Assembly: GCA_045120395.1 (NCBI GenBank)
Contig: JBGVET010000026.1
Span: 5,691-69,690, forward strand
Origin: Candidatus Limimorpha sp.
GTDB lineage: Bacteria > Bacteroidota > Bacteroidia > Bacteroidales > F082
Direction of reading: 5' to 3'
Length of the DNA stretch: 64,000 bases
Shown here in pieces: positions 2,489 through 24,064 of this stretch. The number at the start of each line of letters is the position of its first letter. The first letter of the stretch is position 1. The position numbers were made by a program, and so were the translations under genes. The notes under the pieces were generated by a model. That model was not told the DNA's origin. It saw only the letters and a program-made list of their open reading frames with translations, and did no database searches.

Positions 2489-3685
2489 ATGGCAACAATA
2501 AAAGTAAAACTACGTCCTTCATTGGTGAAAGGGCGTGCTGGAACGATATTTTATCAAATATCACATCGTAGAACTACACAGCAAATAACAACCAGCATAA
2601 AATTGCATCCTCATGAATGGGATCCAGTTAAAGAACGAATTATGATAGATGTGAATAATAGAGTTATCGTTCAGAATCGTATTGACTGTGATACAGCGCT
2701 ATTAAAACACATTGTTAAAGATTTTGAGCATAAAGAAACAAATTATTCCGCCTATGATATTGTTAGACTTTATAAATCTATGGAATGTAATATATCTGTA
2801 TTTGATTTTATGCATACTCAAATACAGTTAATGCGTGATAGCAATCGTTTAGGCACAGCTTTGAACTATGAGAAAACATTGAAAAACTTCACGGAATTTC
2901 TTGGAGGTGTCGATTTACCTATACCTGTAATAAACGAACAACTCATAGCTGAATATAACGCATTTCTCATTAAGCGTGGAATGGTAAGAAATTCCATTTC
3001 ATTCTATATGCGTATAATGCGAGCTGTATATAATAAAGCTGTAAGGCAAAAACTAGTTAATCAAACATATCCATTTGCAGATGTTTATACAGGTATTGAT
3101 AAAACTCGTAAAAGAGCTGTTTCAGAATCTGTAATATCGCAGTTATATAAACTCAATTTAACTGAAAACAGTTCACTTGCACTTGCAAGGGATATATTCA
3201 TTTTTAGTTATTGTACTCGTGGAATGGCTTTCGTAGACATTGCATATTTAAAAAAGGAAAATATCCAAAATGATGTAATTTGCTATACTCGTCGCAAAAC
3301 AGGACAACTTTTAAGTATAAGAATAGAATCAAGCATACGATTGATTATTGACAGATATTCATCCAACCTATCACCTTATGTGTTCCCTATATTGACTTCT
3401 TTGGATATAAAGCAATCATACGAAGAGTATGTAACAGCAATTAACAACTACAATCGTTTGTTAAAAATATTATCAAAGATGTTACCTGATAGTTGTAAAC
3501 TTACCTCATACACTTCAAGGCATAGTTGGGCAACTGCCGCAAGAAATCATAACGTGCCAATTTCTGTTATCAGCGCAGGCATGGGACATTCTACAGAACT
3601 AACCACTCGTATTTATTTAAGTACATTGGAAAACTCAGTAATAGACGATGCTAACAAAGGAATAATCAAGGAATTACTTAAATAG
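2489..3685 (+). CDS. tyrosine site-specific recombinase (integrase/invertase type, IntDOT-like with N-terminal arm-binding domain)
   Basis: ATG at 2489 preferred over TTG 2459; N-term IKVKLRPSLVKGRAGTIFYQISHRR; catalytic region TRGMAFVDIA ... SRHSWATAARNHNVPISVISAGMGHSTELTTRIYL (R..HxxR..H..Y). Confidence 0.9.
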   Translation: MATIKVKLRPSLVKGRAGTIFYQISHRRTTQQITTSIKLHPHEWDPVKERIMIDVNNRVIVQNRIDCDTALLKHIVKDFEHKETNYSAYDIVRLYKSMECNISVFDFMHTQIQLMRDSNRLGTALNYEKTLKNFTEFLGGVDLPIPVINEQLIAEYNAFLIKRGMVRNSISFYMRIMRAVYNKAVRQKLVNQTYPFADVYTGIDKTRKRAVSESVISQLYKLNLTENSSLALARDIFIFSYCTRGMAFVDIAYLKKENIQNDVICYTRRKTGQLLSIRIESSIRLIIDRYSSNLSPYVFPILTSLDIKQSYEEYVTAINNYNRLLKILSKMLPDSCKLTSYTSRHSWATAARNHNVPISVISAGMGHSTELTTRIYLSTLENSVIDDANKGIIKELLK

Positions 3686-3703
3686 TTCCAAGAAAGAACT
3701 ATA
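3682..3703. repeat. left inverted repeat ATAGTTCCAAGAAAGAACTATA (overlaps recombinase stop codon)
   Basis: Exact reverse complement of 3942-3963; internally 7-bp arms ATAGTTC/GAACTAT around 7-nt spacer CAAGAAA. Confidence 0.9.
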
Positions 3704-3941
3704 ACTGAATTGCAAATGTATAAAAATAATAAGTAGTAATAAAGAAATGTAAAATTTTTTTTCTACATAACGACATTCATATAAACCAAATACAAATAGA
3801 ACTATAAATTATAAAGTTACAATATAATTTTGAGAAGAAAAACATCCTTTTATTTATGGTTTAAATCCACTTGAAATAAGTTTTAAAAAAAATCTTGATT
3901 CGTTTTATATAATATTATAAATCATACAATTAAGCAATTGC
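3704..3941. promoter_or_regulatory. candidate invertible promoter segment (inverton)
   Basis: 238 bp AT-rich, bracketed by perfect 22-bp IRs next to a tyrosine recombinase; TAATTTTG (3825-3832, + strand) and TACATTTG (minus strand, 3713-3720) match Bacteroides -7 consensus TAnnTTTG. Confidence 0.55.
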
Positions 3942-3963
3942 TATAGTTCTTTCTTGGAACTAT
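3942..3963. repeat. right inverted repeat TATAGTTCTTTCTTGGAACTAT
   Basis: Exact reverse complement of 3682-3703; 37 nt upstream of operon ATG at 4000. Confidence 0.9.
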
Positions 3964-3999
3964 ATATAATGATTTTTGAAATTTATTTAAACAGATAAA

Positions 4000-4458
4000 A
4001 TGATTGATAGTTTTATAGATACAACAGTTAATATAGAATATGGATTACTTATATCCATTGTTTTAGATGCGATGATATTACTTGTCCTATCATACGTTAA
4101 TAAAGGAAACAAGCTAAATGTCCTATCATATTTTATAGCATTAGCATTACTTATACCTCTTACAATACAAATAAGCCGTTTGATGGGAGCTTATGATCTT
4201 CTTAATACCACATCTGCAATTAATAGTATTGTTGAAGGTATATCACCAGCATTGAGTCAATATATATCAGGTACAGATAGCCACGATATAGAATGGTTTA
4301 TATTTAGACGTATTTTATGGTCTGTAATATTTATAATAATAGCATCTGTATGCATATATGTAACTATGGATAAGAAAAAAATAAGAAATCGTGATATACC
4401 TAACGGAGCTAATATAGGCAGAAGATATAGTTCAAATGTATCAAGAAGACGCAGATAA
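4000..4458 (+). CDS. small integral membrane protein (152 aa), first gene of tubulin-like operon
   Basis: Three to four hydrophobic helices, basic tail RRYSSNVSRRRR; 19 nt before next gene. Confidence 0.6.
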   Translation: MIDSFIDTTVNIEYGLLISIVLDAMILLVLSYVNKGNKLNVLSYFIALALLIPLTIQISRLMGAYDLLNTTSAINSIVEGISPALSQYISGTDSHDIEWFIFRRILWSVIFIIIASVCIYVTMDKKKIRNRDIPNGANIGRRYSSNVSRRRR

Positions 4459-4477
4459 TCATTAAAAAATAAATATT

Positions 4478-7400
4478 ATGGCAACATTAAAAACAAATCA
4501 CATTTTAATAGGTCTTGGTGGCACTGGAGGAAAAATCCTTCGTGCTTTCAAAATGCGAATGTTTGAGGAATTTCCAAACAAGGAAGAACGCGAAAAACAG
4601 CCAATAGCACTTCTCTATGTGGATTCAACAAGAGAAATGATGGGTATTGGAAGAGCGGATATGGATGTAATGGGACAAGACGCTTCATTTGGGGAAAATG
4701 AGTTTTTATATATAAAAGGATGTGACGTGCCAGACCTTCTGGATAACATTGACAATCATCCTGAACTTAAAGGTATTGTCAACAATGTAGGTGCTGTTCG
4801 TACTGCCATTGGAAATCTTGGCGAAGCTGCTGGTCAGAAACGTCGTGCTGGACGTCTTCTTTTTGCAGTTAATGCTCGTAAATACGTTGATGCTTTAAAA
4901 AACTGTTTTTCAAAGTGTAATGAACGTTCTCATAATAATACCAAACAAGTACATATATTTGCAGGTCTATGCGGTGGAACAGGTTCTGGTTCAATTATAG
5001 ATGCTATTGTTCAAGCTAGAAATATATCAGGTTGGGAAAATGCGCAGATAAACGTTTATGCTATGATTCCAGAACAAGATCTTCCTAAGGCTGATATGGA
5101 TAAAGGCAGATATTATGAAAATGGTTATGCCGCACTTAATGAATTGAATGCACTTCAATGTGGACGTTATAATCCATGTGATGTATTGGCAAGTGGTTCT
5201 CCGTTAAATGTATTCAGCGAACGAATCAAAGGTGTTGCAAATGGTATTGCTTTATATAGCAATGTTAATTCAAACGGTAGAATCGTTGATTCATTTGTGG
5301 AATTACCAAAGATAGTAAGTGATTATGTTTATTCTCGCATATTTCTTATAAATCAAGAAGCATCTGAATGTCATGATATTATCAGAGCTTTTAACTTTGA
5401 AAATATGGATGGTGCTGAGTTTGAGTATGATGAATGTGTTATTGCCAATGAAACTATGGCATCACAAGAATTACCAATTGCAAGGACTAAGAAATTATAT
5501 TCATTTGGTCTTAAACGTGTAATTTATCCAGAAATGCGTGTGCTTAAGCACATGACATACACCATTGGTCAAAATGTGCTTTATCAATTTAGATATAACA
5601 ATTGGCGTCCTAATATTGGTTTCATTGACGAAGAAGTTAATATAGACTATCGAGCAGAATATCTTAAAAATGATGTTTTAAATCGTTGGATGCTTGACGA
5701 ATCTCATCTCACATTAGAAGAAGAAATACTTACAGCAAAAGATGGTAACAAACATGAATCGTTTTCAAGAGAATGGCAAAGCAGAGTCAATGACTTTGCC
5801 GATTTCTGCAGTGAATCTGAATGCCCTTTGACAGAAATAAGTCGCCAAATGGATGGAATGTTTGAAGAAAGTTTCCGTAACGAGGGTGTCCGTAATTACT
5901 ATAGTAATAAACTTCGTTCCCTAAATTCTTTTGCTAAAGAAGTACGTTCTAATATAGAGAAAGAATTGTTTAACAAGTGGAGAGATGGACACATTTCTAT
6001 CATGGAACTTAGCCGTATAGGTGAATTGCTTGCCAATTATGTGGCTACTGACATGAAAAAGAAATTAGATGAATCTTTCGAAAACGCCAAAATAAAACTC
6101 GAAGATTCAGACTGCTTGCTTTCACAAATTTTGGATGATTGGACGCATGTAGGATTTATCGGTAAATTTGTGATGAAAAAGAAAAGCGACTACTATGTTG
6201 AATACCAAAATGAATTAGTTAATAATTTAAGTATCAGAACACTTCTTGTTGCATTGGATTTTGCTCATCAATTATCTTCTGAACTACAACGTGAAATTGG
6301 TAAGATGAGTGATGATATTAATTCCTTCAGCAAAATGCTTAATGATACTATTGACGAGACTAATCGCTTAATTACCGCTCAACAAAAAGTCAACAAAGGA
6401 CTTGAAGATATGCGCGGTGCAGTGATTGAAGTTAGTGAAGAAGAGCGTATGATTAAGTACGAAGAGGAATTGCGTTATGATAAAGAAGGTATGGGTAATA
6501 TTTCACGTCAACTTCGTGAAGCTATTCTTCCTGAAACAGAATTTAAAAACTTTGGTGATTTACTAACCCGTATTAATGAAAAGACCATCAAACATGTATT
6601 TGATGTCAGACTATCTGATATTATTCAGGCAAAACACGCTGATTTACCACCGTCATCAACTAAAATACTAGGTTTAAATATTCTTACACAATTACAACAA
6701 AAGTTAGGAAATAATTACCAAAAGATACAGGAATTTGCTCATGAAATTCTCGAACAAAGTGGTGCATATATCAATTTGGATCGTAATCAAATTATATCAA
6801 ACATTCGTAATAACGACCAACCTGATGAGAATAAGAATATCAATCTTCGCGAAGTTCTCATAAGCATACCATCACCTGATGACAATCCTGGATTAAAAGA
6901 ATTTGCCGAAGATTTAAAAAGAGCGTTTGAAAGTCAAGTTGAAAATGGAGTGAAACCTCCAAAAATCTTTATGGAAAGTTCTCGTAAGAATGAATTATCT
7001 ATCATCACTATAAACTACGCATTCCCAATGCGAGCAATTAGTTGGTTGTCTGGTTATAGAAAACGTTATGATAAATATCTTAACACAGGAAATGCCAGTC
7101 AAGATCTAAGTCGTTCTATATTACTTCACAGTGAAGGATTGGGCGATAATCTTCCTGATATTTTTGCAAAAACAGACGCTGAATTACGCAAAATAGATGA
7201 AGAGAACGCAAAGAAACACCCAATGGCTACTGCACCTGTGGGAAATACTGCTTTTCAGGCTCCGATGACAAATATGCCTCCAATGCCTGGCGCAGCTGTT
7301 CCTCCTCCGATGCAACCTGCGGAACCACAAGTACAAATGTTCTTATACATAGGTGGACAACAATATGGTCCTTATGATTTTAAAACATTAAAACAATTTG

Positions 7401-7576
7401 TTGCGACACAACAGTTAACACCTCAAACAATGGTATGGATGCAAGGCATGGCAGCATGGACACCAGCTGGACAAGTACCGGAATTACAAACTTTATTTGC
7501 TCCTACACCACCATCTCCTGGTATGCCTCCGATGCCTCCTACACCTGGTTCGGTACTACCTCCTATGAATATGTAA
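4478..7576 (+). CDS. tubulin/FtsZ-like GTPase (Tubulin_2-type) with long helical region and C-terminal proline-rich/GYF_2-like domain
   Basis: GLGGTGGK near N-terminus; FAGLCGGTGSGSIID resembles tubulin/FtsZ signature GGGTGSG; C-terminus PPMPGAAVPPPMQP, then YIGGQQYGPYDFKTLKQFVATQQLTPQTMVWMQGMAAWTPAGQVPEL (GYF_2-like), then PPSPGMPPMPPTPG. Confidence 0.75.
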   Translation: MATLKTNHILIGLGGTGGKILRAFKMRMFEEFPNKEEREKQPIALLYVDSTREMMGIGRADMDVMGQDASFGENEFLYIKGCDVPDLLDNIDNHPELKGIVNNVGAVRTAIGNLGEAAGQKRRAGRLLFAVNARKYVDALKNCFSKCNERSHNNTKQVHIFAGLCGGTGSGSIIDAIVQARNISGWENAQINVYAMIPEQDLPKADMDKGRYYENGYAALNELNALQCGRYNPCDVLASGSPLNVFSERIKGVANGIALYSNVNSNGRIVDSFVELPKIVSDYVYSRIFLINQEASECHDIIRAFNFENMDGAEFEYDECVIANETMASQELPIARTKKLYSFGLKRVIYPEMRVLKHMTYTIGQNVLYQFRYNNWRPNIGFIDEEVNIDYRAEYLKNDVLNRWMLDESHLTLEEEILTAKDGNKHESFSREWQSRVNDFADFCSESECPLTEISRQMDGMFEESFRNEGVRNYYSNKLRSLNSFAKEVRSNIEKELFNKWRDGHISIMELSRIGELLANYVATDMKKKLDESFENAKIKLEDSDCLLSQILDDWTHVGFIGKFVMKKKSDYYVEYQNELVNNLSIRTLLVALDFAHQLSSELQREIGKMSDDINSFSKMLNDTIDETNRLITAQQKVNKGLEDMRGAVIEVSEEERMIKYEEELRYDKEGMGNISRQLREAILPETEFKNFGDLLTRINEKTIKHVFDVRLSDIIQAKHADLPPSSTKILGLNILTQLQQKLGNNYQKIQEFAHEILEQSGAYINLDRNQIISNIRNNDQPDENKNINLREVLISIPSPDDNPGLKEFAEDLKRAFESQVENGVKPPKIFMESSRKNELSIITINYAFPMRAISWLSGYRKRYDKYLNTGNASQDLSRSILLHSEGLGDNLPDIFAKTDAELRKIDEENAKKHPMATAPVGNTAFQAPMTNMPPMPGAAVPPPMQPAEPQVQMFLYIGGQQYGPYDFKTLKQFVATQQLTPQTMVWMQGMAAWTPAGQVPELQTLFAPTPPSPGMPPMPPTPGSVLPPMNM

Positions 7577-7611
7577 TACGAATAATGAAATAATTATATA
7601 AAATAAAAGAT

Positions 7612-8211
7612 ATGGATAATAGAAATTCAGGACGTATTAAAAAATACGGTGTTTGTTTAAATGACAAATGTTCACAATACAAAGTAGTTCAAGAAATAAT
7701 GCATGGTAATCTTGAATGCCCAGAATGCAAGAAGAAACTTTCTCCTTGCGCTCCTCCAAAGAAGAAAAACAACTCAAAACCTATAGTTGTTGCACTTATA
7801 TCCTTACTGTGTATTGGTGCTATCATAGGAGGCATATTTGTATTTTCAAAAAAGACAGTTACTAATACAGAGCAAACTATAATCGAAAAAAGTATTGTTG
7901 AGAAAGTAGAAACACCTGTTGAACCGGAAAAGATTACTTCAGATGATGGTGTTCTTAATCTAAGTTACGGAACATACACAGGTGCAACTAAAGACGGATA
8001 TCCTCATGGACAAGGTCGTTTGACATACACAAAATCACGTCAAATCAACCGAAATGACATTAAGAATCGTATCGCAAATGAAGGCGATTATGTGATTGGT
8101 GAATTTTTTAATGGATTTGTTGTCTATGGAAAACTTTATGATTCCAATGGCAATCTACTACGTTCACTTAATTTCGGCATTGGTTCAGAAAACAGTTATG
8201 ATTCTAAATAA
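7612..8211 (+). CDS. Zn-ribbon / single-TM / MORN-repeat protein
   Basis: CLNDKC...CPECKKK; TM IVVALISLLCIGAIIGGIFVF; MORN-like YTGATKDGYPHGQGRLTY and GDYVIGEFFNGFVVYGKLY. Confidence 0.6.
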   Translation: MDNRNSGRIKKYGVCLNDKCSQYKVVQEIMHGNLECPECKKKLSPCAPPKKKNNSKPIVVALISLLCIGAIIGGIFVFSKKTVTNTEQTIIEKSIVEKVETPVEPEKITSDDGVLNLSYGTYTGATKDGYPHGQGRLTYTKSRQINRNDIKNRIANEGDYVIGEFFNGFVVYGKLYDSNGNLLRSLNFGIGSENSYDSK

Positions 8212-8233
8212 TTTTTGAACAATCAATTGGTAT

Positions 8234-9217
8234 ATGAGCAAAACAACTTATCATAGAATTCTAATATTGACTTTCGGTTTGTTCTTTTTTTCAAACACAA
8301 GTCATGCTCAAAAATTTTCTCTTTTCTCCAAAGAGGTTAAGAAAGATTATCCATCAGCAGTGTATAATTTTCTTGAAACATACCTTTACAAAATAGATAG
8401 TTTAGAAAGAGCAAATGAAAATATTGATAGGATTCTTCGTGATGATAAGGTGATATTTTTAGAAGGCTCCGCATCCTTGGCTCGTAATATTACACCAGAA
8501 ACATTGTGCAAAATAAAGACAATCGAAAACAAGTATTATGAAGTTTCTTGGCTTGACAATACAAATGAAACAATTTTATCTTTGGCTTTCCCAATGCAAT
8601 ATGAGTTATTGCTTGGCAGACCTAAAGTTGAATTAGAAAAAGAGTTGAAGTTTGTATTGTCGGTTTGTCAAGATTACATTCCTAAAAACGTGTCAAATAT
8701 CGATTTGTTCAATCAGGAAAATGGTGGTATTATGACCACATCAAGCTCAAACTACTATCTGGAAAATTTGAATACAACATCCTATTATATCATGTCGGAA
8801 ACAGGAGATACCATTCCTATTTTTTCTGATAAAGACAATTGGATGTCTGCTGTAAATTTATTCCAAGGATGTATTGATGATATATCCGAATACAAGTTGT
8901 ACATAGAACAAAATATGTATGGTTTTAAAAGTATTCAGTATACCATAACTTTACAACAATGGTTAGCATATTGTCAAAAGATGATGTTGACAACATATTT
9001 TGCTATAGAGGAAGAAAGAGAAGATGGATTTAAAGCCTTGCTTATTGCTGAAAGTCATGAATTAGGGTTTAATCATATGCTGTCATTGATAATTCCTTCA
9101 AACTTTGTTTCTAACAAACGTTCTGTTTTTAAGGCAACAATGAATGCATATATACCAACTCATAATGTAAAAGATTTGTATCAAGTATATGTTAAAAAAA
9201 CAAAGAAACAAATATGA
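8234..9217 (+). CDS. secreted hypothetical protein (signal peptide)
   Basis: N-terminal ILILTFGLFFFSNTSHAQ; operon context; no known motif. Confidence 0.55.
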   Translation: MSKTTYHRILILTFGLFFFSNTSHAQKFSLFSKEVKKDYPSAVYNFLETYLYKIDSLERANENIDRILRDDKVIFLEGSASLARNITPETLCKIKTIENKYYEVSWLDNTNETILSLAFPMQYELLLGRPKVELEKELKFVLSVCQDYIPKNVSNIDLFNQENGGIMTTSSSNYYLENLNTTSYYIMSETGDTIPIFSDKDNWMSAVNLFQGCIDDISEYKLYIEQNMYGFKSIQYTITLQQWLAYCQKMMLTTYFAIEEEREDGFKALLIAESHELGFNHMLSLIIPSNFVSNKRSVFKATMNAYIPTHNVKDLYQVYVKKTKKQI

Positions 9218-9918
9218 TGAGAAAATATATCATTATACTCACGATTTCTCTGATTATAGGGAATGTACACGCACAAAGTGAACAAGATAGAATAAATGAG
9301 ATAAAAAGCGACATTGGATATCTATATGCTACAGGGACGTCTATGAACAATGCAGATGAAGCTGCAAAAAACGCACAAGATTTACTTGCCGTAGAAATAG
9401 AGCAATGGTTAAAAGTAAATGTATCTGGTGATATTGCAGGTTACATAGCAAAGTCTCAGGGTAACTACTCTACAATACAAACAAGGCGTGGCAAGTTGTA
9501 TCGTGCGTTTGCATTTGTAAGCAAGATGGATATATTGCCATACTACCAAAAAGAAGATTTGATGCATGTTGAGTTTACAAATTCAGAAGAACAGCAAACA
9601 GAAAATAGCATAATTGAAGAAATATTATATTATCCAACTTCTGAAGAGCAACAAATGATGAACGTCAAAACTTTTACAGAGCTTAATGAATACATTAACC
9701 GAGGTAGAGAAGATAAAAGCATTATCGATGTCGGAAATTATGCAAATCTGCCACAAAATGGTGTTGTATATGTTTTTATTCATAACAGACAAGGTGAAGT
9801 GCCAGCTTGTATGAAAGTGACAGATGGCTTCGCTATCAATATTGCTACTGGCAAAGAGGATAATATATCAAAATATAAAGGATGCGGGGCGATATGGATT
9901 AAACAAAACAACAAATAA
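9214..9918 (+). CDS. secreted hypothetical protein (possibly LPP20-like)
   Basis: ATGA overlap with upstream gene; signal peptide IIILTISLIIGNVHAQ. Confidence 0.5.
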   Translation: MMRKYIIILTISLIIGNVHAQSEQDRINEIKSDIGYLYATGTSMNNADEAAKNAQDLLAVEIEQWLKVNVSGDIAGYIAKSQGNYSTIQTRRGKLYRAFAFVSKMDILPYYQKEDLMHVEFTNSEEQQTENSIIEEILYYPTSEEQQMMNVKTFTELNEYINRGREDKSIIDVGNYANLPQNGVVYVFIHNRQGEVPACMKVTDGFAINIATGKEDNISKYKGCGAIWIKQNNK

Positions 9919-9927
9919 AAGAAGTAT

Positions 9928-10914
9928 ATGAAAAAGATATTTTTAACATTAGTGTTATTGTCATTACTTTATAATGTCAATGCTACTGGAAAAGTTACAG
10001 TTCGTATTTCTGATGGTATTGAGAATACAACTGTCAAATCAAAAATGGAACAAGTTATTTCTAAAATTTTGACGGAAGCTAATGCTGCTCATAAAGAAAA
10101 AAGAGAATTAAATTATTCTATATTGGGAATACCTTCATCAGTACAAAGCTCTTTGGCTTCTCTTTGGGATAATTCTCCATTTATAAGTATGGATAATGAA
10201 ATTGTCGAACGCTGCATCACAACAGCTAATGGTTATCAGATAAGAAATATTCCTCTCATATTAAAACCGTTAAATTCTACAGATATAGAAGATGATGAAG
10301 ATTACCAAGAAGCTGTAGTCAGTTTTGATAAACAAGGAAACCTTACTTCATTTTATTTGTCTATCAGCATGAATCTATACATGAATGTAATCAGAGACAA
10401 TAAGGAAATAACAGATCTCCGTCGTCGTCAATTGATACTTGATTATGTAGAACAATTCAGAACTGCTTACAATCAGAAAGACCTTGATTTTTTAGAGGCG
10501 GTGTATAGTGACGATGCTCTTATTATAACAGGAAAGGTAATTAAAAGAAAACCTGTTGATGGTATAGTCATGCCAGATAAAATAGAGTATTCTCAGCAAA
10601 ATAAGAAGACATATCTAAACAATCTTGCTAAAATTTTCAATAGCAACAAACAGATTAGAGTACAATTTGATGAAGTTGAGGTAATGAGGCACGGTGTGTC
10701 TCCTGATATATATGGGGTTACATTGCATCAATCATGGACAACAGATACATATCATGATGATGGATATCTTTTCTTATTATGGGATTTCCGAGATGAAACA
10801 CACCCACAAATACACGTCAGAACTTGGCAACCAGATGCATATAACTCTGATGGCACTGGAACAAAACGTATCCCTAAAGATGAAATATTCAGTTTGAGCG
10901 ATTTTGATATATAG
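9928..10914 (+). CDS. secreted protein with C-terminal NTF2/SnoaL-like (DUF4440-like) region
   Basis: Signal peptide LTLVLLSLLYNVNATG; LDYVEQFRTAYNQKDLDFLEAVYSDDALIITG resembles NTF2-like fold starts. Confidence 0.5.
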   Translation: MKKIFLTLVLLSLLYNVNATGKVTVRISDGIENTTVKSKMEQVISKILTEANAAHKEKRELNYSILGIPSSVQSSLASLWDNSPFISMDNEIVERCITTANGYQIRNIPLILKPLNSTDIEDDEDYQEAVVSFDKQGNLTSFYLSISMNLYMNVIRDNKEITDLRRRQLILDYVEQFRTAYNQKDLDFLEAVYSDDALIITGKVIKRKPVDGIVMPDKIEYSQQNKKTYLNNLAKIFNSNKQIRVQFDEVEVMRHGVSPDIYGVTLHQSWTTDTYHDDGYLFLLWDFRDETHPQIHVRTWQPDAYNSDGTGTKRIPKDEIFSLSDFDI

Positions 10915-10960
10915 TATATCAACCATAACGAATTGTAAAATTACCTAAAATTGATATGAT

Positions 10961-11200
10961 ATGTGTAAAAAACAGATGAATGAGTTAAAAGAATTATTTA
11001 ATGCCTCCATACCTTCACCTGAAGAAACATCTACTGAAAAGATATTATTATCTAACGGTAGAATTTCTCTTCTCAAGAAAACAGATGGAACATTCTGTTT
11101 GAAAAATGAAATCGTGGGGTGTCAATATGGACATTTTTTAACAAAAAAAGAAGCAGAAGAATATTGGGAGGATATTGTTATTGATGACAACACCTTGTAA
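10961..11200 (+). CDS. small hypothetical cytoplasmic protein (79 aa)
   Basis: ORF in operon register, no signal peptide; weak support. Confidence 0.35.
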   Translation: MCKKQMNELKELFNASIPSPEETSTEKILLSNGRISLLKKTDGTFCLKNEIVGCQYGHFLTKKEAEEYWEDIVIDDNTL

Positions 11201-11252
11201 AAAGCTAAATTGTACAAAATTTGAAAAAATCAATTAAATAGGAGAAATAATA

Positions 11253-13355
11253 ATGAAGAGACTTTTTTTGTTATTGCTGTTTGTAAATAGTCTTGCTTAT
11301 GCTCAAAATTATAGTATAAGTAGCGTTATTGAACTTCAAAATGATTTGGCGGCCAGAAGAAATGTAGTGACTGACTCGTCGGGGATAGGTTGCGCTTTGA
11401 TTAGGGTAAACATTCCTTCTGTTAATAATATCAAATTTGATTCGTCAATAGTTGGCGAAGTAGAGTTTTTGCCAGGTGAATATAATGTTTATTTACCAGA
11501 ATATTCAAATTTATTATCAGTTTCAGTAGATGGAGAATGGTATGATATAGATTTTTCAAAATTCAATATTACGATTGAAGAGAAAAAATGCTATCGCATT
11601 ATTTTTAGGAAGAATATAAATACTAATGTACCTGTGGTTTCAAAAACTTCAATTAATGCAAATTATGACAACGTGGTGGTATTGATTGATGGTGTGCCTG
11701 TGGGACAAACTCCATTACAACTGGATAACATATCACTAGGAGAACATATTTTATCTGTCCCGAATACAAATGGAGTGACCATGCGTGATACAACTATTGT
11801 TTTCACAGAAAACAATATAATAAACTTGTTTCTGCACAAAGAGGATAAAAAAACAGTTATTGTTGACATGGCCACGCCAGGTGGGGATTCATGTGGATGG
11901 TATAATGTTTTTGGTACAAATATTAAAGAAGAAAATGGAAAAGTAGGTGTTGTTGAGTATACAGGAGATACAATTGTTCCCTTCGAATTTGATTATATAT
12001 ATCCAGGTATTCTGAATGGATATTATCTCGTGAATAAAGATGATAAATGGGGATTATACGATATGGATAAAGGCTTAGTTGTTCAGTGTGTATATGATAA
12101 TATAAGTGCATGGAAATCGTATGCTCATGATCAATATATGCCTGTTGCCCAGGATGATAAGTGGGGAGTTATTTCTCCAGAAGGGGAATTGATTATCCCT
12201 ATAAAATATGAAAATCATCCCCAACTATATGAAGATGTCATAAAAGTGGAATATATAGAACAAGAAAGTAAGAAAGAATTTTATGGAGTTTATTCATATG
12301 ATGGAGAAGAAATTATAAAACCTAAATACGAATATATGAATGAATTTGTTAATGGCTATGCTTTCTTTAGAAAGTATGATGACACAGTAGGTTTTGTTGA
12401 TATTTATGGAAATGAAACATATTTTCCAGAAGGTTATAGTGTTGGGAGTAGTTGGGGAATAGGTGGAACCATATTTAGGAGTAATCTCTTTAGAGTAAAA
12501 GATAAGGTATCAGGTAAATGGGGATACATGAACTCTCAACTTGAATTGGTTATTCCTTGTATTTATGATGCAATAAGTGAATACGACGCTGCACCTAATT
12601 TCAATAATGGAATAGTGCTATTAAAACTAAATGAAGATAAATTGGTATTGGACTCAAATGGTAACATTATTGTAAGTTGTAAAAATCATGGATACAGTGA
12701 TATTGAGATAGTTAGTCGTTCAAATTCCATATGGAATCATGGTCGTTTCTTTGAGTATCACGATTACTACGACATAGATAATAATACTCTTATTAAAGTT
12801 GTAAATTTAGATGCCAAATGTGGCCTTATAGATACAGATGGAAACATCATTGTTCCGTGCAAATATGAAGAAGATGACATACGATGGTTTTGTGATAATT
12901 ACACAAATTATTTTACTTTGTTAAATAACGATGAAGTAATTATATGTGACAAACATCAGAATGAGTTATTACGATTGCCTTCAAATCTTAGAATTCTTGA
13001 AATAACAGATGGATTCATTATGATTAAAGATGAAGAATCTGGATCTTATGGCTATCTTAATACAAAAGGTGAAATTTTAGCAAATTGTATTTATGGTAAT
13101 AGTTATAATGAACAACAGCTTGAAGGTGACAATGATGATAATGATGGGTATGACATGGCTAATGTTATAAATGAACAACCTATAACAGAAGGATTAGCAA
13201 TCTTAAATATAGGAGATAGATTTGGTTTTATTGATAATAATGGAAATGTTAAAGTGCCGCTTATTTATACTGCCGTAACACCATTTGAGAATGGTATGGC
13301 ATATGTTAGACAACAAAATGGAGAATGGAAAAAAATTTATAAAGACGAATTATGA
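11253..13355 (+). CDS. secreted PEGA-domain / WG (KWG) beta-repeat protein (700 aa)
   Basis: Signal peptide LLLFVNSLAYAQ; PEGA-like VVVLIDGVPVGQTPLQLDNISLGEHILSV; repeats DDKWGLYD, DDKWGVISPEGELIIP, SGKWGYMNSQLELVIP, KCGLIDTDGNIIVP, RFGFIDNNGNVKVP. Confidence 0.65.
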   Translation: MKRLFLLLLFVNSLAYAQNYSISSVIELQNDLAARRNVVTDSSGIGCALIRVNIPSVNNIKFDSSIVGEVEFLPGEYNVYLPEYSNLLSVSVDGEWYDIDFSKFNITIEEKKCYRIIFRKNINTNVPVVSKTSINANYDNVVVLIDGVPVGQTPLQLDNISLGEHILSVPNTNGVTMRDTTIVFTENNIINLFLHKEDKKTVIVDMATPGGDSCGWYNVFGTNIKEENGKVGVVEYTGDTIVPFEFDYIYPGILNGYYLVNKDDKWGLYDMDKGLVVQCVYDNISAWKSYAHDQYMPVAQDDKWGVISPEGELIIPIKYENHPQLYEDVIKVEYIEQESKKEFYGVYSYDGEEIIKPKYEYMNEFVNGYAFFRKYDDTVGFVDIYGNETYFPEGYSVGSSWGIGGTIFRSNLFRVKDKVSGKWGYMNSQLELVIPCIYDAISEYDAAPNFNNGIVLLKLNEDKLVLDSNGNIIVSCKNHGYSDIEIVSRSNSIWNHGRFFEYHDYYDIDNNTLIKVVNLDAKCGLIDTDGNIIVPCKYEEDDIRWFCDNYTNYFTLLNNDEVIICDKHQNELLRLPSNLRILEITDGFIMIKDEESGSYGYLNTKGEILANCIYGNSYNEQQLEGDNDDNDGYDMANVINEQPITEGLAILNIGDRFGFIDNNGNVKVPLIYTAVTPFENGMAYVRQQNGEWKKIYKDEL

Positions 13356-13996
13356 TCAGGTGTTTTTTTATCATTATAGCTACATTTATTAGTTTAAATT
13401 CGTTTGCGCAGAATTTAACTATAAATAGTTGCAAATATTGCAAGACGGATTCAACATATATTGTTTTACAGAGATATGACATAAATGATAATCCTTGTGC
13501 CATTATTAAAGTCTTCCCAAAAGATATTAAGGGAAAACTTGAATTTAAGGGTAATATTATAGGCGAAGTTATAAATAATGATGATCATTATGTTATTTAT
13601 GTCTTAAATAAGACTAAACGAATTAGTGTTTTCCATACAGATTATACTCCAGAAGTTATTGATTTTACAAAATATGATGATACTTCAATGGGTGTTGAAC
13701 AAAATAAAGTATATTATGTTCAGATAGCGGGAGATACTAAAAACACGTCGTCCTCAGATATGGTATACCCATCAGGATCTAGAGTACTATCATTTTCTTC
13801 AGATAATGAACTTAAGCAATTAGTTGTAAATGACATCGATTGGCAAATTGTTGATAATAGTGCAAAAAAGCTATTGCCATATGGGAAATATAAATATGAA
13901 GCAATCGATACTGAAGGACGATGTTTGAAGGGTGAAGTAGAGTTACTCCCTGCAATAGGGAGTAAGATTGTCAAATTAAATTTTGGTAATAATTAG
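13352..13996 (+). CDS. secreted hypothetical protein (214 aa)
   Basis: ATGA overlap with upstream gene; signal peptide FFIIIATFISLNSFAQ. Confidence 0.5.
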   Translation: MIRCFFIIIATFISLNSFAQNLTINSCKYCKTDSTYIVLQRYDINDNPCAIIKVFPKDIKGKLEFKGNIIGEVINNDDHYVIYVLNKTKRISVFHTDYTPEVIDFTKYDDTSMGVEQNKVYYVQIAGDTKNTSSSDMVYPSGSRVLSFSSDNELKQLVVNDIDWQIVDNSAKKLLPYGKYKYEAIDTEGRCLKGEVELLPAIGSKIVKLNFGNN

Positions 13997-14512
13997 ATGG
14001 AAAAATATAATCTTGAGGAATATGTGGTTAAAGCTTCTCCTAAAGTTAATCAATTATTGAGGGGTAATATTGATGCATCTGAATATACCTTTGACTCATT
14101 ATTTGAAAAAGGTATAGTATCCCAACCTCTTTATCGATTGATTAACAATGAGCATATTCACATTCAAGATGGAATCTTTGCTGATAAAGGATATTTGTCT
14201 TGTACAAGTGATTTTGATTCATTTATCCATCATGTAGATGGTGTAAATGTTGCATGTCTGCAATTTAATATACCCGATAGTTTTCAGAGAATAGATGTAC
14301 ACGCTTTATTGCCTGACCACACTGATGAAGGTGAAATAGTCCTTCCGAGAGGCCTTCAATTTAGGGTTGAAAGCGTACAAGAGTATGCGACTCCTAGTGA
14401 TATTCAAAATTTCTTGGATAATATAGGAAGTATCTCATCTGCTAAAGAAATTTGTGGTATATATGGAATAAAAACGATAACCTACTATAGATTATCACTA
14501 ATTCTGCATTAG
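13997..14512 (+). CDS. ADP-ribosyltransferase-like protein (C3/VIP2-type R-S-ExE pattern)
   Basis: VNQLLRG; PLYRLI (Arg); GYLSCTSD (STS-like); DEGEIVLPRGLQFRV (ExE + following LPRG); no signal peptide; ATG abuts upstream TAG. Confidence 0.65.
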   Translation: MEKYNLEEYVVKASPKVNQLLRGNIDASEYTFDSLFEKGIVSQPLYRLINNEHIHIQDGIFADKGYLSCTSDFDSFIHHVDGVNVACLQFNIPDSFQRIDVHALLPDHTDEGEIVLPRGLQFRVESVQEYATPSDIQNFLDNIGSISSAKEICGIYGIKTITYYRLSLILH

Positions 14513-14576
14513 AATATGCATTTATAGAGTTAATATATATCGTTAAGAACAACTATAAACCAAGCAACAGAAACAT

Positions 14577-15494
14577 ATGAATCCATTTGACGCAAACGAA
14601 AGACATAGATATATTATAGAATCTGGCGGCATCCCTGCATCTTCTAGAGAGGAGCAGGAGAAGGAAATGTGGGTTAACTCTATTAATGTTGATCTAGATA
14701 TTCCTATATATCGTTATATGAAATGGGAATATCTACAAAAGTTTTATTCCTCTACACGGCATGAATGGATATTAGCACATCCGTGTTTATGGCAAGATAA
14801 GTTTGAGCATTTTATATTTAAATGCGAGAAGGTCCATAGTTCGAAAATGAATATCGATATTGAAATATCAAATCTTGCAGATCATTATTATGCCCAATGT
14901 TGGACTATTGTTGAAGAATCTTCATTGCAATGGCAGGTTAATAAGCCCCATACTAATAGTTGTCACGATAATGTAGGGGATGATGAAAATGGAGAAATTT
15001 GGGTAAAAGTACGAACTACGCCGAGAAAACTATTAGGAGCAATGTTTTATTCTTCAGACAATCTTGTGGAAAATTCCTACAATATGATAACATACTTTAT
15101 CGGTAAAGTAGAATATCTTGCTAGTGAAGATATTGAAAACTTTAAGATAACAGATTCTAATCAGTTAATGGACCAAACAGGTTTACTGCAGGTTTTATTT
15201 CTTTTGCAAAAAAGAATGCCATATATACAAGAGCAAGAAGTTCGACTAATTATGCAAGTTGATAGTAATTTTTGCAACAAACATCCAGAAAATATAGTTG
15301 GAAGAAGTATTGACAATTGGTATGATTTGATTGATGAAATTGTTCTTGATCCATGGGTTACCCAAAGTCAGGAGGAGACAGTTAAGTCGTATTTGTTACA
15401 ATTAGCCCAGCAACAAAACCGAACACCTATTAATTGTTGGAAGTCTCATTTAAATGATCATCCCCAATATTTGGTACCTATCCTGGATATTTAA
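14577..15494 (+). CDS. DUF2971-like hypothetical protein
   Basis: IYRYMKWEYLQKFYSS...LAHPCLWQDKFEHF resembles DUF2971 N-terminal pattern (YRY..., ..D.FE); last + strand gene before terminator. Confidence 0.4.
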   Translation: MNPFDANERHRYIIESGGIPASSREEQEKEMWVNSINVDLDIPIYRYMKWEYLQKFYSSTRHEWILAHPCLWQDKFEHFIFKCEKVHSSKMNIDIEISNLADHYYAQCWTIVEESSLQWQVNKPHTNSCHDNVGDDENGEIWVKVRTTPRKLLGAMFYSSDNLVENSYNMITYFIGKVEYLASEDIENFKITDSNQLMDQTGLLQVLFLLQKRMPYIQEQEVRLIMQVDSNFCNKHPENIVGRSIDNWYDLIDEIVLDPWVTQSQEETVKSYLLQLAQQQNRTPINCWKSHLNDHPQYLVPILDI

Positions 15495-15543: not shown

Positions 15544-17742
15544 CTACAAAAACCATAAATGGTTAGTATCAATATCGTAATTATTTACATCGTTGAAGTA
15601 TGGTAGCATCTGGGCTATCATCTCTGGGTATTTGATTGTTACTGGTAGGTTTTGTTGTTTGACTGATTTCCAATAGATACGACTGAATTGATATACTTGG
15701 TCGATGAGCTGATTGATTGTTGTGGTGTCAATGTCGAGCATAGGGTCGTTGGGACAGTCTATCTTTATTTTTATCGGGAATGGGTATCCGTCGTATGGGT
15801 TTAACCTTGCATTTTCGTAGCGTGTGTTGTTGCATAAAAGATATGTCTTGTCGCCTAAATTAACGTATGTTCCGCTGTATGGCATTAGTTCTTTGTAATT
15901 GTCATCAAATACCACATAGTCTTCTGATTCTGTCTTGTTTATTGACAATACATAAAATGGTATATCAAGATTGAGGTTGTGCAGTGCTTTTTCGATGTGC
16001 GCTATTTCTTTGTGGTTCATAGTTTTGTAATAGTGTATGATTAGTCGTTGTGGTTTGCCGTTTGCAACTGCAAATTTAAGGATGGCATTTTCTATGGAAC
16101 CTGCCAGTTCTTCTAATTCATCATTTAAAAAGTAGGCAAAGGAGTTGAAAGAACCTGTGTTGTCGAATGAGAATGCGGAACCTATATATTGTGTGTTTGT
16201 CTCTGTATTGCGAAATGCTCCTACACCTACTATGAGTTCGTCCTGTTTAGGTGACGATAGTCGCCAAGGTGTTCCGCCGAGTTTGGCATTGATGGCTATA
16301 GACATGTTTTGAAGAGTGTAGGCAAAGTTTTTCAGAGGTTTGCCGTTGCTGTCAGTATTTGTATTGTCGTGTTCAATCATGCTGAGCATTTTGGATGTTT
16401 CAATGCATTGCGAGACGATATTGTATCTGAGCAGTCTTTCTTTTACTCTGTAATATATCTTACGTTCTTCCTTGTCGGATGTGTGTCTGCCTATCGGCGT
16501 CAGGTATATGGCGATTATCTTTTCATTATGATTAAAAGTCATATTTCTAAGGAAGTCGTTCAGTTCTCCCAAGATATTGTTTGTGTCTTGTATTTCAAGA
16601 AATTTATTTGAGAAAGAAAAATCTCTACCTATGTATAGTTTTAGTCCTTTGAACAGTTGTTTATAGTCATTTTTGAAATATCTGAGGAGGTTTCTTGCTG
16701 CTTCTCTGTCTTCTTTCGGGAATATCGCCAACATTGTAATAGATGGATATGGCGTTGGCTGAAACGGACCGTGGTTAACTCCGATTTGTGGATTATAGTT
16801 TGTTGTATTGCCTCCAAACATCAGCGATCTGCTTGCTGAATTGGTGTGACCTATCTGCAAAGGATTAAGTTTAGCAAATCCATCTTCGATATTTATCAGC
16901 TTACGGAATTCATCGTTGTTGATAGTCTTATAAAAAGCAGAAATTTTGTCAAAGTATCTTTTGTATTTGTTTCTTGGATATGTCTTTTTGTAAGATAATG
17001 GTTCTTCGATTTCGTCTTCATCGGCAAATTCTATTTGCAGATAGTTTATCAGTTCACGATTCATTATAGGATATGCGGCGTTTGAATCGAAGTTTTCTGT
17101 AAGAGATATTGAACTGTATTTATCTACAATGAATTTTGTGAATTTGTCTTTTCTTCTGTAAACGACTTTTCCGAAGAGTTCGGCTGATGGCTGTATCGGT
17201 GAAAATGGGTCGTCGGATGACTGCATAATCTTTGCCACCGAATATTTATACACCCATGTCGGACGGTCGTATGTGATGACGAGCTGCGGTGTGTTGTTAA
17301 ATCTATCGTAGTTGACTTTTAGAGTAAAACGGTCATATTTGATACATTCAGGATAAGGATTATCTCTACCATCTCTGAACCAAATCTGATTGTCTTTTGT
17401 TATTTTATTGGTTTCTATCAGAAAGTTCTTACTTACAAAATATTGGTAAATAAGTCTGTTGTAGTATCGTTTTGCGAATGCAAAATTTCTCGGGTCACGC
17501 AGGTCTATCTTGACAGGTGTGAATCCGTTAGTTTCGACTTCAAATGTTGAATAAATCTTGTCTCCATTTTTAAAATCAGGGAATGCTTCTTCCAATTCTA
17601 TGGGTTTGTTGTGATGCGTCAAGAATGGGAAGTTTATTCTATCAGTTGTGTGCAAGAAATAGAATGTTTGCGGTTCTTCAGGAAATTGAAAGCGAATGGC
17701 GTTCAAGAAGAGAGATTCTTGTGATGATTGATTGTTGTTCAT
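15544..17742 (-). CDS. prokaryotic Argonaute, long form, predicted catalytically inactive (long-B-like)
   Basis: PIWI-entry motif NMSIAINAKLGGTPWRL; MID-like YYRVKERLLRYNIVSQCIETSK; DEDX positions substituted (LIVGVGAF where GxDV expected, LIIHYYKT where RDG expected); 732 aa. Confidence 0.8.
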   Translation of the reverse strand: MNNNQSSQESLFLNAIRFQFPEEPQTFYFLHTTDRINFPFLTHHNKPIELEEAFPDFKNGDKIYSTFEVETNGFTPVKIDLRDPRNFAFAKRYYNRLIYQYFVSKNFLIETNKITKDNQIWFRDGRDNPYPECIKYDRFTLKVNYDRFNNTPQLVITYDRPTWVYKYSVAKIMQSSDDPFSPIQPSAELFGKVVYRRKDKFTKFIVDKYSSISLTENFDSNAAYPIMNRELINYLQIEFADEDEIEEPLSYKKTYPRNKYKRYFDKISAFYKTINNDEFRKLINIEDGFAKLNPLQIGHTNSASRSLMFGGNTTNYNPQIGVNHGPFQPTPYPSITMLAIFPKEDREAARNLLRYFKNDYKQLFKGLKLYIGRDFSFSNKFLEIQDTNNILGELNDFLRNMTFNHNEKIIAIYLTPIGRHTSDKEERKIYYRVKERLLRYNIVSQCIETSKMLSMIEHDNTNTDSNGKPLKNFAYTLQNMSIAINAKLGGTPWRLSSPKQDELIVGVGAFRNTETNTQYIGSAFSFDNTGSFNSFAYFLNDELEELAGSIENAILKFAVANGKPQRLIIHYYKTMNHKEIAHIEKALHNLNLDIPFYVLSINKTESEDYVVFDDNYKELMPYSGTYVNLGDKTYLLCNNTRYENARLNPYDGYPFPIKIKIDCPNDPMLDIDTTTINQLIDQVYQFSRIYWKSVKQQNLPVTIKYPEMIAQMLPYFNDVNNYDIDTNHLWFL

Positions 17743-22541: not shown

Positions 22542-23097
22542 GTCTTAAGAATTTAGGGTTGATGATACAATGTGGGTCGTGTGGAAGGAAGCAGGCTCGT
22601 GAAATGTTTCTGCATTGCGGGTCTGCAACTAGAGAATAGGTGTGTGACAGATAGTTGGAAATGGAATCGAACCAGTCTTGGTGTGATGCCTCTGATATGT
22701 CTATTTCCACAATCCATTTCAGTCCGTCGCCTGATGGTGATACGAATAGCAGTTGTGTCTCGAAGTATTCGTCTTGAATTAGAATGTCCTTTACGTCTTC
22801 TATATTGTTGAGATGGTCGAAGTCGAGACATAAGAGTCCTGAATGTTGGATAAGCCCATCATCGCTACGTTTGTTGAAAGTACCGCTGAAAGTGCAGTAG
22901 TTGAAATTTCTCGCCTTATATTGACGAGCATAACTTTTGTCGGCTATTGCACGCAATGAATTGGTGCTGTGAGTCGCCTGATGTCCTACAATGTAATTGT
23001 AAGCGTCGAGCAAAGTGAAGACCTTGCTCGGCTTAGTGTTGGAGATTGGCAAACTGAAGAATGAGAACTTCTTGTTGTTATTGCTTTGATTTTCCAT
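22522..23097 (-). CDS. VirE N-terminal / BT4734-like domain protein
   Basis: CTFSGTFNKRSDDGLIQHSGLLCLDFDHL...LLFVSPSGDGLKWIV. Confidence 0.6.
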   Translation of the reverse strand: MENQSNNNKKFSFFSLPISNTKPSKVFTLLDAYNYIVGHQATHSTNSLRAIADKSYARQYKARNFNYCTFSGTFNKRSDDGLIQHSGLLCLDFDHLNNIEDVKDILIQDEYFETQLLFVSPSGDGLKWIVEIDISEASHQDWFDSISNYLSHTYSLVADPQCRNISRACFLPHDPHCIINPKFLRHDKETI

Positions 23098-23464
23098 ACT
23101 CGTTTCTGATTTTATACATTACATAATTGTCGGCAAGTATTTTCTGTATATCTTGACGGCGATAATAGATTTTGCCGTTGATACGAGAAAAAGGTAGAGT
23201 TCCGTTAGAACGGAGAGTTTGTAGTGTGCGAGGACTGATGTGCAGTGTTTCCATCACATCTTGATTGTCAATCCAATCATTAAGATGAGTATGTTTAACA
23301 AGATTATTAATTTCATTGTCACTAAGACCATCAAGACTTAACAATCCTTTACTAATCAATTCTGCCTGAATGAAAGGACATTTGACGATAGTCTTTCCGA
23401 TAGCATCATCCTTATCCATTGCCATTTCGCAAATGATGTCTTTCAACAATTTAGGTTCGCTCAT
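23078..23464 (-). CDS. helix-turn-helix (excisionase/MerR-like HTH_17) protein
   Basis: DVMETLHISPRTLQTLRSNGTLPFSRINGKIYYRRQDIQKIL. Confidence 0.6.
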   Translation of the reverse strand: MSEPKLLKDIICEMAMDKDDAIGKTIVKCPFIQAELISKGLLSLDGLSDNEINNLVKHTHLNDWIDNQDVMETLHISPRTLQTLRSNGTLPFSRINGKIYYRRQDIQKILADNYVMYKIRNEYGKSKQ

Positions 23465-23820: not shown

Positions 23821-23936
23821 GATAACTTATTTTTATGTTAGAAAAATTGGAACTCCACAACCGTCCGAGAGTTCCGTTTTCGGGCGATTGCTTGATGCAA
23901 AAGTAGAATGGAAAATATTGATAATTATAAGAATAG

Positions 23937-24059: not shown

Positions 24060-24064
24060 TATGT

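Follow-up and report, generated by a model that had tools for sequence, protein, structure and literature searches.

A putative Tsr-type invertible promoter upstream of a tubulin-like operon on a Bacteroidales mobile island

Results

A tyrosine recombinase gene, a 238-bp segment enclosed by perfect 22-bp inverted repeats and an 11-gene operon encoding a Tubulin_2 protein follow one another in the 64-kb stretch of DNA from a gut Bacteroidales bacterium analysed here (the window). Judged from its sequence and from its relatives in other Bacteroidales, the locus is very probably a Tsr-type invertible promoter (inverton), and the orientation of a family-conserved −7 box indicates that it was assembled in the OFF state. 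The switch type is already known and involves no new mechanism; its novelty lies in the FtsZl1/Tubulin_2 cargo on a mobile island.

The predicted invertase is a 398-aa tyrosine recombinase encoded at 2489–3685 (+). Its Pfam domains (Arm-DNA-bind_5, Phage_int_SAM_5 and Phage_integrase) bear out the class assigned in the initial annotation, and its C-terminal catalytic region is kept in 26 relatives. The candidate catalytic residues are R244, K270, Y341-x-x-R344, H367 and Y376, of which R244, K270, R344, H367 and Y376 are conserved with the recombinase relatives. In a pairwise alignment with XerA (4a8e), which runs through the RHxxxT...GH...Y region, an alanine occupies the canonical first-arginine column, with R244 three residues upstream, and a tyrosine replaces the histidine of the HxxR motif. 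Since both deviations are family-wide, they are probably normal for this recombinase clade. The family comprises 5276 proteins at E ≤ 1e-30. Matches to the recombinase of the window fall from 100% and 99% directly to 77%. No serine recombinase was found among the subset of window ORFs that was scanned.

The left recombination site (IRL), ATAGTTCCAAGAAAGAACTATA, is located at 3682–3703 (+) and recurs as its exact reverse complement at 3942–3963 (IRR, minus strand), with 22/22 identity and 238 nt between the copies. The core of IRL, GTTC-CAAGAAA-GAAC (3685–3699), overlaps the recombinase stop codon TAG (3683–3685), which itself falls within the repeat. The core of IRR lies at 3946–3960, and the repeat ends 36 nt before the operon ATG at 4000. 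In both copies, arms of 7 bp enclose an asymmetric 7-nt spacer (ATAGTTC / CAAGAAA / GAACTAT), and the two spacers are identical but oppositely oriented. The repeat pair between recombinase and operon, and its reading as two core sites, are thus as the initial annotation had described them. A repeat match of 22 bp was found in none of 100 dinucleotide-preserving shuffles of the window, and the two copies are the only ones in the 64 kb when up to three mismatches are allowed. No distant second target of the switch was found within the 64-kb window, and the 22-mer had no exact match when JGI metagenome contigs were scanned.

Relatives of the recombinase were compared at 44 Bacteroidales genome loci, with site statistics drawn from 23 loci of 50–76% identity. 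A GTTC-N7-GAAC core is found at the recombinase stop codon in almost all of the 44 loci, and relatives of 57–76% identity have the same core at or just after the stop. Across the 23 loci, this core begins 0–18 nt past the stop, and its inverted copy follows 183–401 nt downstream. Nine distinct spacers occur among them, yet a single spacer is shared by all sites of a locus in 21 of the 23, so that spacers covary within loci. In 19 of the 23, one of the cores, and never both, has a TAnnTTT[G/A] box at a distance of 12–14 nt. The box reads outward, towards the recombinase in 11 cases (including the window) and towards the operon in eight. For this clade, the comparison provides a rule by which the ON or OFF state of an assembly can be called from the −7 box 12–14 nt from one core.

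Orientation polymorphism was also evident in the family. Between genomes, the inner segments of L012 and L015 are homologous in opposite orientation (88% over 274 nt, minus strand). A single MAG contains two assembled versions of one locus, L028 and L043, that differ in orientation: the left flanks are identical over 588 nt and the right flanks over 1300 nt, and each 296-nt inner segment is the exact reverse complement of the other. Homologous segments in both orientations were thus found between genomes as well as within one metagenome sample, in line with a check proposed in the initial annotation, and the architecture of invertase, inverted repeats and promoter claimed for the window is one that a large family of recombinases conserves. 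The contigs of several relatives stop 3–5 nt past the core.

The putative invertible segment (3704–3941) aligns over its length with the segments of 10 relatives once reversed. Throughout the resulting 11-sequence alignment, TAnnTTTGC is invariant at a box located at 3713–3720 (−), TACATTTG(CA). This box, 13 nt from the core, reads outward through IRL and away from the operon. Its sequence, TACATTTGCA, corresponds to the Bacteroides-type −7 element TAnnTTTG; the accompanying −33 element is imperfect (TTTC). Inversion would move it to 3925–3932 (+), a computed distance of ~68 nt before the ATG, close to the ~70 nt given in the initial annotation. The second box quoted there, TAATTTTG at 3825–3832 (+), is likewise present, but it has no conserved TAnnTTTG column in the family alignment, and its proposed role as the operon-facing promoter is unsupported. 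It was consequently rejected as an alternative ON promoter. The window contains 74 occurrences of TAnnTTTG, against 73 expected from shuffles, so a lone box carries little weight, and the box at 3825–3832 is probably a chance match. The ON orientation had been regarded as undecidable; by the family-conserved box it can be called and, because that box faces away from the operon, it places the window in the OFF state. At the other, non-promoter end of the segment, a block of conserved alignment columns, TGATTTATAATATTATATAAAA (3903–3924, −), appears in relatives as TTGA-TTTAAAATATTATGCAAAA and could represent an accessory or arm-type binding site.

The following mechanism is proposed. The 398-aa recombinase would bind both core sites, ATAGTTC-CAAGAAA-GAACTAT, with strand exchange at the borders of their identical 7-nt spacers. 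The spacers are asymmetric and face opposite ways, so the predicted outcome is inversion of the 238-bp segment instead of its deletion. The single Bacteroides-type promoter would fire outward across the neighbouring site. In the state seen in the window, it would run into the recombinase gene from its 3′-end, leaving the operon OFF. In the inverted state, transcription would start at about the edge of IRR, and the FtsZl1 operon would be driven through a ~60-nt 5′ leader containing the IRR hairpin. We infer that the recombinase of the window would itself catalyse this reaction at its own locus.

All seven contigs that span the switch of the window, from six samples (L001/L003, L002, L004/L069, L006, L007 and the window), are in the window orientation. 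The sole signs of heterogeneity at this locus come from two independent assemblies that break exactly at inverted-repeat boundaries. Both contigs belong to the strain of the window. ENA contig L072, at 28x coverage, stops with the final base of IRL (3703). The first base of Logan contig L005 is at 3934, so that 8 nt of the inner segment precede the 22-nt repeat; this length is k−1 for k = 31, and the position is the predicted branch point for a population of mixed orientation. Two further contigs start at 3957 (L070) and at 4006 (L071), the latter 64 nt beyond the expected point. Contig ends also arise otherwise, for example from a drop in coverage or from strain mixtures. The inversion proposed in the initial annotation is hence borne out in family members, while at the locus itself the breaks at 3703 and 3934 stand beside seven spanning contigs of one orientation. 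The predicted inverted junctions read ...GAACTATA joined to GCAATTGCTTAATTG and ...GCAATTCAGT joined to TATAGTTC. For the ON state, the predicted left junction joins AATTACTTAAATAGTTCCAAGAAAGAACTATA to GCAATTGCTTAATTGTATGATT, and the right junction joins CTTATTATTTTTATACATTTGCAATTCAGT, TATAGTTCTTTCTTGGAACTAT and ATATAATGATT in that order.

The uniform orientation, the TTTC −33 element, the deviations in the XerA columns and the homologous operons that lack a switch (below) all caution against an active switch. The locus may instead be an ancestral inverton now locked OFF, with an inactive or unexpressed recombinase and an operon that is silent or served by another promoter, such as the box at 3825–3832. 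The uniform orientation across six samples and the isolated recombinase lineage would both suit such a fossil. It is nevertheless unlikely: the sites are still identical at 22/22 positions with matching spacers, the recombinase has an intact ORF that retains every family-invariant residue, and the breaks in the two assemblies coincide exactly with the boundaries of the sites. Moreover, active invertons in metagenomes are normally mostly OFF (PMC8748976; PMC4611039).

The putative controlled operon consists of 11 genes at 4000–15494 (+), delimited from ORFs, intergenic gaps of 0–65 nt and Pfam matches. A 152-aa membrane protein is encoded by the first gene, starting at the ATG at 4000, and a 1032-aa protein with Tubulin_2 and C-terminal GYF_2 domains by the second (4478–7576, +). 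The match to Tubulin_2 (PF13809) covers residues 9–368 and scores 148.5 bits (3.8e-43), against a gathering cut-off of 27. The operon also encodes a MORN-like protein, a 305-aa protein and a 171-aa ADP-ribosyltransferase-like protein (13997–14512, +). Signal-peptide-like N-termini are present in five of its proteins, the WG_beta_rep/PEGA protein (11253–13355) among them. Neither a vWA nor an OmpA partner was detected at the operon. A known defence-system label was rejected, as PADLOC gave no match for any operon protein. Because the genes are tightly spaced and no terminator-like sites were found, all 11 may be co-transcribed and phase-variable together, as the initial annotation had supposed.

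Homologous tubulin operons of 57–89% identity have neither the recombinase nor a GTTC-N7-GAAC pair, and all those examined carry a DUF6565 gene and a native upstream region where the window has the switch. At two of them (L052 and L054), an unrelated 50-nt inverted repeat is found ~1 kb upstream. By tblastn, the tubulin operon is missing from every related locus that the genome scan returned. The operons headed by the same recombinase clade are instead of kinase+AAA, FHA+protease, dynamin-like, sigma-factor and NusG-led types. A upxY/NusG-like gene is often the first gene downstream in the relatives.

The switch and the operon are located in a low-GC island carrying mobile-element genes. This setting, together with a domain architecture shared with Bacteroides integrases and the spread of recombinase relatives over many Bacteroidales families, would fit a mobile-element integrase whose repeats are attachment or end structures and not an expression switch. 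Such an integrase is very improbable here, however. The island has a separate and very different integrase of its own (25069–26343) at its edge next to lysS. The repeats are inverted and not direct, and the 238 bp that separate them contain no gene; in the L028/L043 pair, inversion affects what lies between the sites and leaves both flanks as they were. In addition, the spacing between a promoter box and one of the sites is fixed across the family. Finally, the very AT-rich region and the small hairpin that each copy can fold (−5.5 or −8.9 kcal/mol) might suggest that the repeats arose by chance, are left over from a MITE-like element or act as terminator hairpins for the recombinase gene, but the shuffles, the lack of further copies in the window and the family-wide conservation of site position, spacing and spacer covariation effectively refute these readings, and the terminator role was also rejected because no terminator-like site or U-tract was found.

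Discussion

As an inverton, the locus closely recalls the promoters of the BT1927 S-layer and BF4087 loci, where 22-bp inverted repeats flank a 256-bp promoter segment beside the Tsr recombinases BT1928/Tsr26 (PMC4611039; for an earlier source on Tsr-type promoters, see Weinacht 2004 as cited therein). An adjacent tyrosine recombinase, 22-bp repeats, short arms around a 7-nt spacer and the usual OFF assembly are common to both, and the segment of the window is of comparable length at 238 bp. Unlike that class, for which the consensus is GTTAC[N7]GTAAC and the downstream gene encodes an S-layer lipoprotein (PMC4611039), the window has a GTTC-N7-GAAC core that departs from the consensus, a recombinase stop codon within the left site and a cargo that includes Tubulin_2. 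Its likeness to the named Tsr systems (Tsr19, Tsr26 and BT1928) is one of layout. In the IP-ARG classes, which are found on integrative elements, an invertase gene immediately precedes an invertible promoter with a −7 element of TANNTTTGY and variable cargo, and promoters of this type are mostly OFF in metagenomes (Yan, Hall & Jiang 2022, PMC8748976). The window shares the fit to TANNTTTGY, the highly variable cargo and the mobile-island setting with these classes, and the upxY/NusG-like gene that often comes first in its relatives is a further resemblance, but it carries an FtsZl1/tubulin-like envelope operon instead of resistance or glycan genes.

Cargo other than capsule genes is also found at the BT4014-13 restriction and BT0292-94 lipoprotein loci of B. 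thetaiotaomicron, whose phase variation was verified by PCR (bioRxiv 10.1101/521070). Those loci likewise have an upstream recombinase and inverted repeats (18 bp) that flank a near-consensus promoter assembled OFF. They differ in cargo and in their verification by PCR, whereas the locus of the window is known from its sequence. Capsule inversion of the Mpi type differs in its enzyme, a serine invertase.

Invertible promoters are a means by which gut Bacteroidales diversify their surfaces and survive phages, antibiotics and immunity. FtsZl1/Tubulin_2 operons have been predicted since 2010 to remodel membranes (Makarova & Koonin 2010, PMC2875224), and our literature search returned no report of invertons linked to tubulin-like genes or of phase-variable control of FtsZl1/Tubulin_2. 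As in the operons of that prediction, the Tubulin_2 gene of the window, second in its operon, is found among genes for predicted membrane and secreted proteins, although the vWA or OmpA partner is absent from those detected. The function of this envelope system is known from predictions, and here it is placed under a putative ON/OFF switch. Such control suggests that the tubulin-like system is costly or double-edged, as are capsules, S-layers and restriction systems. One conjecture, which we hold only tentatively, is that recombinase, site, promoter and site form a portable module that was captured here before a conserved FtsZl1 operon. The clade may then serve widely to make costly envelope and conflict systems of a cytoskeletal or signalling kind phase-variable, its reach extending beyond surface antigens. 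If this were true, the product of the tubulin-like operon would be a structure of the surface or of defence on which phages or the host exert selection. The switch would also offer a genetic handle, as mutation of a half-site should yield locked-ON and locked-OFF strains.

Several relatives have three sites (L028/L043, L033, L047 and L051), whereas the window has two. These resemble the IP-ARG loci with two adjacent invertible regions. They also recall the EPS and OMV switch Tsr19/BF2766 of B. fragilis (PMC4747536), in which a tyrosine invertase acts on an invertible promoter nearby and extra repeats lie between promoter and genes.

Structure of the switch and its recombinase

The ORF in front of the switch (398 aa, 2489–3685, + strand) had been taken for a tyrosine recombinase, and its Pfam domains agree (Arm-DNA-bind_5, Phage_int_SAM_5, and Phage_integrase). 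Its TAG stop codon (3683–3685) falls inside the left inverted repeat, ATAGTTCCAAGAAAGAACTATA (3682–3703, + strand), which recurs as its exact reverse complement at 3942–3963, with 238 nt between the two copies and a gap of 36 nt from the right repeat to the first ATG of the downstream operon (4000). This exact 22-nt pair, described in the initial annotation, is confirmed: there were no matches in 100 dinucleotide-preserving shuffles, and no further copy was found in the window with up to three mismatches allowed. Both copies have the structure ATAGTTC/CAAGAAA/GAACTAT, and the asymmetric spacers of the left and right repeats point in opposite directions. Tyrosine recombinase sites with oppositely pointing spacers give rise to inversion, not deletion. 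The end of the invertible segment that lacks the promoter carries a conserved block, TGATTTATAATATTATATAAAA (3903–3924, − strand; TTGA-TTTAAAATATTATGCAAAA in relatives), to which the N-terminal domain of the recombinase may bind as an accessory or arm-type site.

The catalytic region of the recombinase aligns to that of XerA (PDB 4a8e), and is kept in 26 relatives (RGM[A/S]F, RRKTGQ, Y-x-x-RHSWA, GMGH, and TTxIYL). Throughout the family, the canonical first-arginine column is occupied by Ala, with an invariant arginine (R244) three residues upstream, and the HxxR histidine position is Tyr. A displaced first arginine has also been described for IntDOT of Bacteroides. The recombinase gene start (2466–2508) and the tubulin-like gene start (4455–4497) share 72% identity over 43 nt (ATTATGGCAACAWTAAAA), and the encoded proteins begin with MATIK and MATLK, respectively; this likeness is probably due to chance.

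Conserved sites and inversion among relatives

When one genome of each GTDB species was scanned for the recombinase, 44 loci were returned, nearly all in MAGs titled as Bacteroidales from the guts of animals and humans, with identity to the window recombinase reaching 76% at best. In almost every relative above ~57% identity, a GTTC-N4-AAAGAAC core begins 0–18 nt past the stop codon, an inverted second core lies 183–401 nt downstream, and a + strand operon follows within 30–300 nt. The 7-nt spacer has nine sequences across 23 loci, yet a single spacer is shared by all sites of a locus in 21 of them. Such within-locus matching is a requirement of tyrosine recombinase strand exchange, and would not arise from chance repeats. 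Three to five core copies, arranged as ++- or +--, are found in the relatives L028/L043, L033, L047, L051, and L036, where the promoter is located on an 84–100 nt sub-segment; this layout permits nested inversions or deletion, and recalls the several repeats of the B. fragilis Tsr19 locus (PMC4747536). Two distant relatives carry another palindromic core directly past the stop codon (L034, 57% identity, 3640–3660, TTTCTTCGTAAGAAA; L041, 40%, 7225–7249, TTTCCTTGTAAGAAAC), which suggests that recombination site and enzyme co-diverge.

Homologous loci occur in both orientations, as the initial annotation had proposed to check, across genomes and within one MAG. By blastn, the inner segments of different genomes show full-length homology in opposite orientation (L008, L010, L011, L012, and L018 versus L014, L015, L016, and L038), with L012 and L015 sharing 88% identity over 274 nt on the minus strand. 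The strongest case of inversion in the family comes from a goat-caecum MAG, in which a 15-kb contig (L028) and a 2.2-kb contig (L043) have identical flanks (588 nt on the left, 1300 nt on the right) around 296-nt inner segments that are exact reverse complements, and thus show one locus of a single sample in both states. In many relatives, contigs break only a few bases from the core, with L013, L009, and L048 ending 3–5 nt past it. Breaks of this kind are how an inverton usually shows itself in an assembly.

Promoter position and orientation

An alignment of the 11 closest inner segments, all set to a common orientation, shows an invariant TAnnTTTGC 8–10 nt before the flanking ATAGTTC. This motif reads outward through the site and fits the Bacteroides −7 consensus TANNTTTGY (PMC8748976). 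More broadly, in 19 of 23 loci a single core has a TAnnTTT[G/A] box 12–14 nt away; the box faces the operon in eight of these loci and the recombinase gene in the other 11. A −7 box had been assigned to each strand of the window segment. The minus-strand box, TACATTTG (3713–3720), is 13 nt from the left core and is the counterpart of the conserved box; the plus-strand box, TAATTTTG (3825–3832), has no conserved counterpart in the family alignment, and the bare −7 motif occurs in the window at chance rate (74 matches versus 73 expected). As the conserved box faces away from the operon, the window is, judged from this alignment, assembled in the OFF state. Inversion would move the box to 3925–3932 on the + strand, ~68 nt before the ATG.

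The window locus in other assemblies

By exact-protein look-up, several public assemblies were seen to contain this recombinase or the first gene of the operon. Every switch-spanning contig is identical to the window and has the same orientation, while three contigs break at the switch. L072 (ENA ERZ28436057, 28x, separated from the window by 5 SNPs) runs to the final base of the left repeat (3703), L071 (ENA ERZ28436057, 25.7x) begins at 4006, and the Logan contig L005 (SRR25030076) begins at 3934. The L005 start comprises eight inner bases plus the 22-nt repeat, equal to k−1 for k = 31. By our derivation, the 3703 end and 3934 start are the de Bruijn branch points expected with both orientations in the reads. 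These breaks are a suggestive sign of flipping in natural populations, though not proof, and flipping at this exact locus is so far inferred. A Logan contig from a 99%-related strain (L070, ERR3393579) begins precisely at 3957, where the 7-nt spacer of the right repeat gives way to the GAAC arm and strand exchange is expected; this may be a coincidence or a sign of cassette exchange, with variants present together whose sequences diverge as far as the crossover point.

Comparison with known invertons

The layout matches three published groups, which, together with the conserved sites and inversion in the family, supports the initial phase-variation interpretation, now with the OFF call added. 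Bacteroides Tsr-type local invertons include a 256-bp promoter element with 22-bp repeats by BT1928/29 and a GTTAC-N7-GTAAC core (PMC4611039); because the window core is GTTC-N7-GAAC, the locus is not placed in the BT1927 class. The group in B. thetaiotaomicron comprises eight recombinase-linked promoters, a restriction system that is phase-variable, and a lipoprotein locus, the last two being OFF in the reference genome assembly (bioRxiv 10.1101/521070). Invertase-adjacent invertible promoters on integrative elements carry variable cargo, are mostly OFF in metagenomes, and sometimes comprise two adjacent invertible regions (PMC8748976). The switch mechanism is ordinary for gut Bacteroidales. 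What is of interest is the cargo and the genetic handle on an uncharacterised tubulin-like system; a literature search found no paper linking invertons to tubulin-like operons.

The tubulin-like operon and its genomic island

Eleven + strand genes follow the switch (4000–15494) with gaps of 0–65 nt. The second encodes a 1032-aa protein (4478–7576, + strand) with Tubulin_2 (3.8e-43) and GYF_2 Pfam domains, which belongs to a large family (2541 matches at E<=1e-10) and corresponds to the FtsZl1 group, for which membrane-associated complexes are predicted (PMC2875224, PMC9871819). In homologous operons (89, 87, 85, 84, and 57% identity), the genes follow the same order: small membrane protein, tubulin-like protein, MORN-like protein, and several secreted proteins, including WG/PEGA. 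In most of them (L052–L067), the small membrane-protein gene is preceded by a DUF6565 gene (131–134 aa) or an unannotated 161–205 aa gene in its place, whereas in the window this gene is absent and the recombinase-switch cassette takes its position before the ATG at 4000. Neither a recombinase nor a GTTC-N7-GAAC pair was found upstream of the homologous operons examined, and none of the 44 recombinase loci has a tubulin operon, their cargo being varied (Pkinase+AAA, Sigma70_r4, FHA+trypsin-like protease, NusG/UpxY-like, AAA, Dynamin_N, Pkinase, and DUF3868). The switch module is therefore portable, and its association with the tubulin-like operon seems to be specific to this lineage.

GC content in the window is 29–34% up to ~16 kb and rises towards 40–42% (~41%) beyond. 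A full-length pAgo gene (15544–17742, − strand; PADLOC pAgo, 1.5e-211), convergent with the operon end, and an ADP-ribosyltransferase-like gene (13997–14512) make this low-GC region resemble a defence island. Mobile-island hallmarks span 20658–26343 and 27222–28943. A DUF3987/PriCT_2 primase-like gene (20658–22541, − strand), a BT4734-like gene (22522–23097, − strand), and a second tyrosine integrase (25069–26343, − strand) adjoining the lysyl-tRNA synthetase gene lysS indicate that switch and operon lie on an integrated island with its own integrase. That the 398-aa protein could itself be the element's integrase is argued against by this second enzyme, which is very different, aligning with it over only 59 aa, at 31% identity. 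The left end of the island lies beyond the window, and short (TCCTAAC)n-like tandem repeats are found on both sides of lysS (27110–27132 and 28982–29018). Two contigs carry a 50-nt inverted repeat (84% complementary, 183 nt between arms; L052 1812–2094 and L054 342–624) at a distance of ~1 kb upstream from the tubulin-like operon of 89% identity, which has no recombinase nearby; this repeat is possibly a MITE or another inverton.
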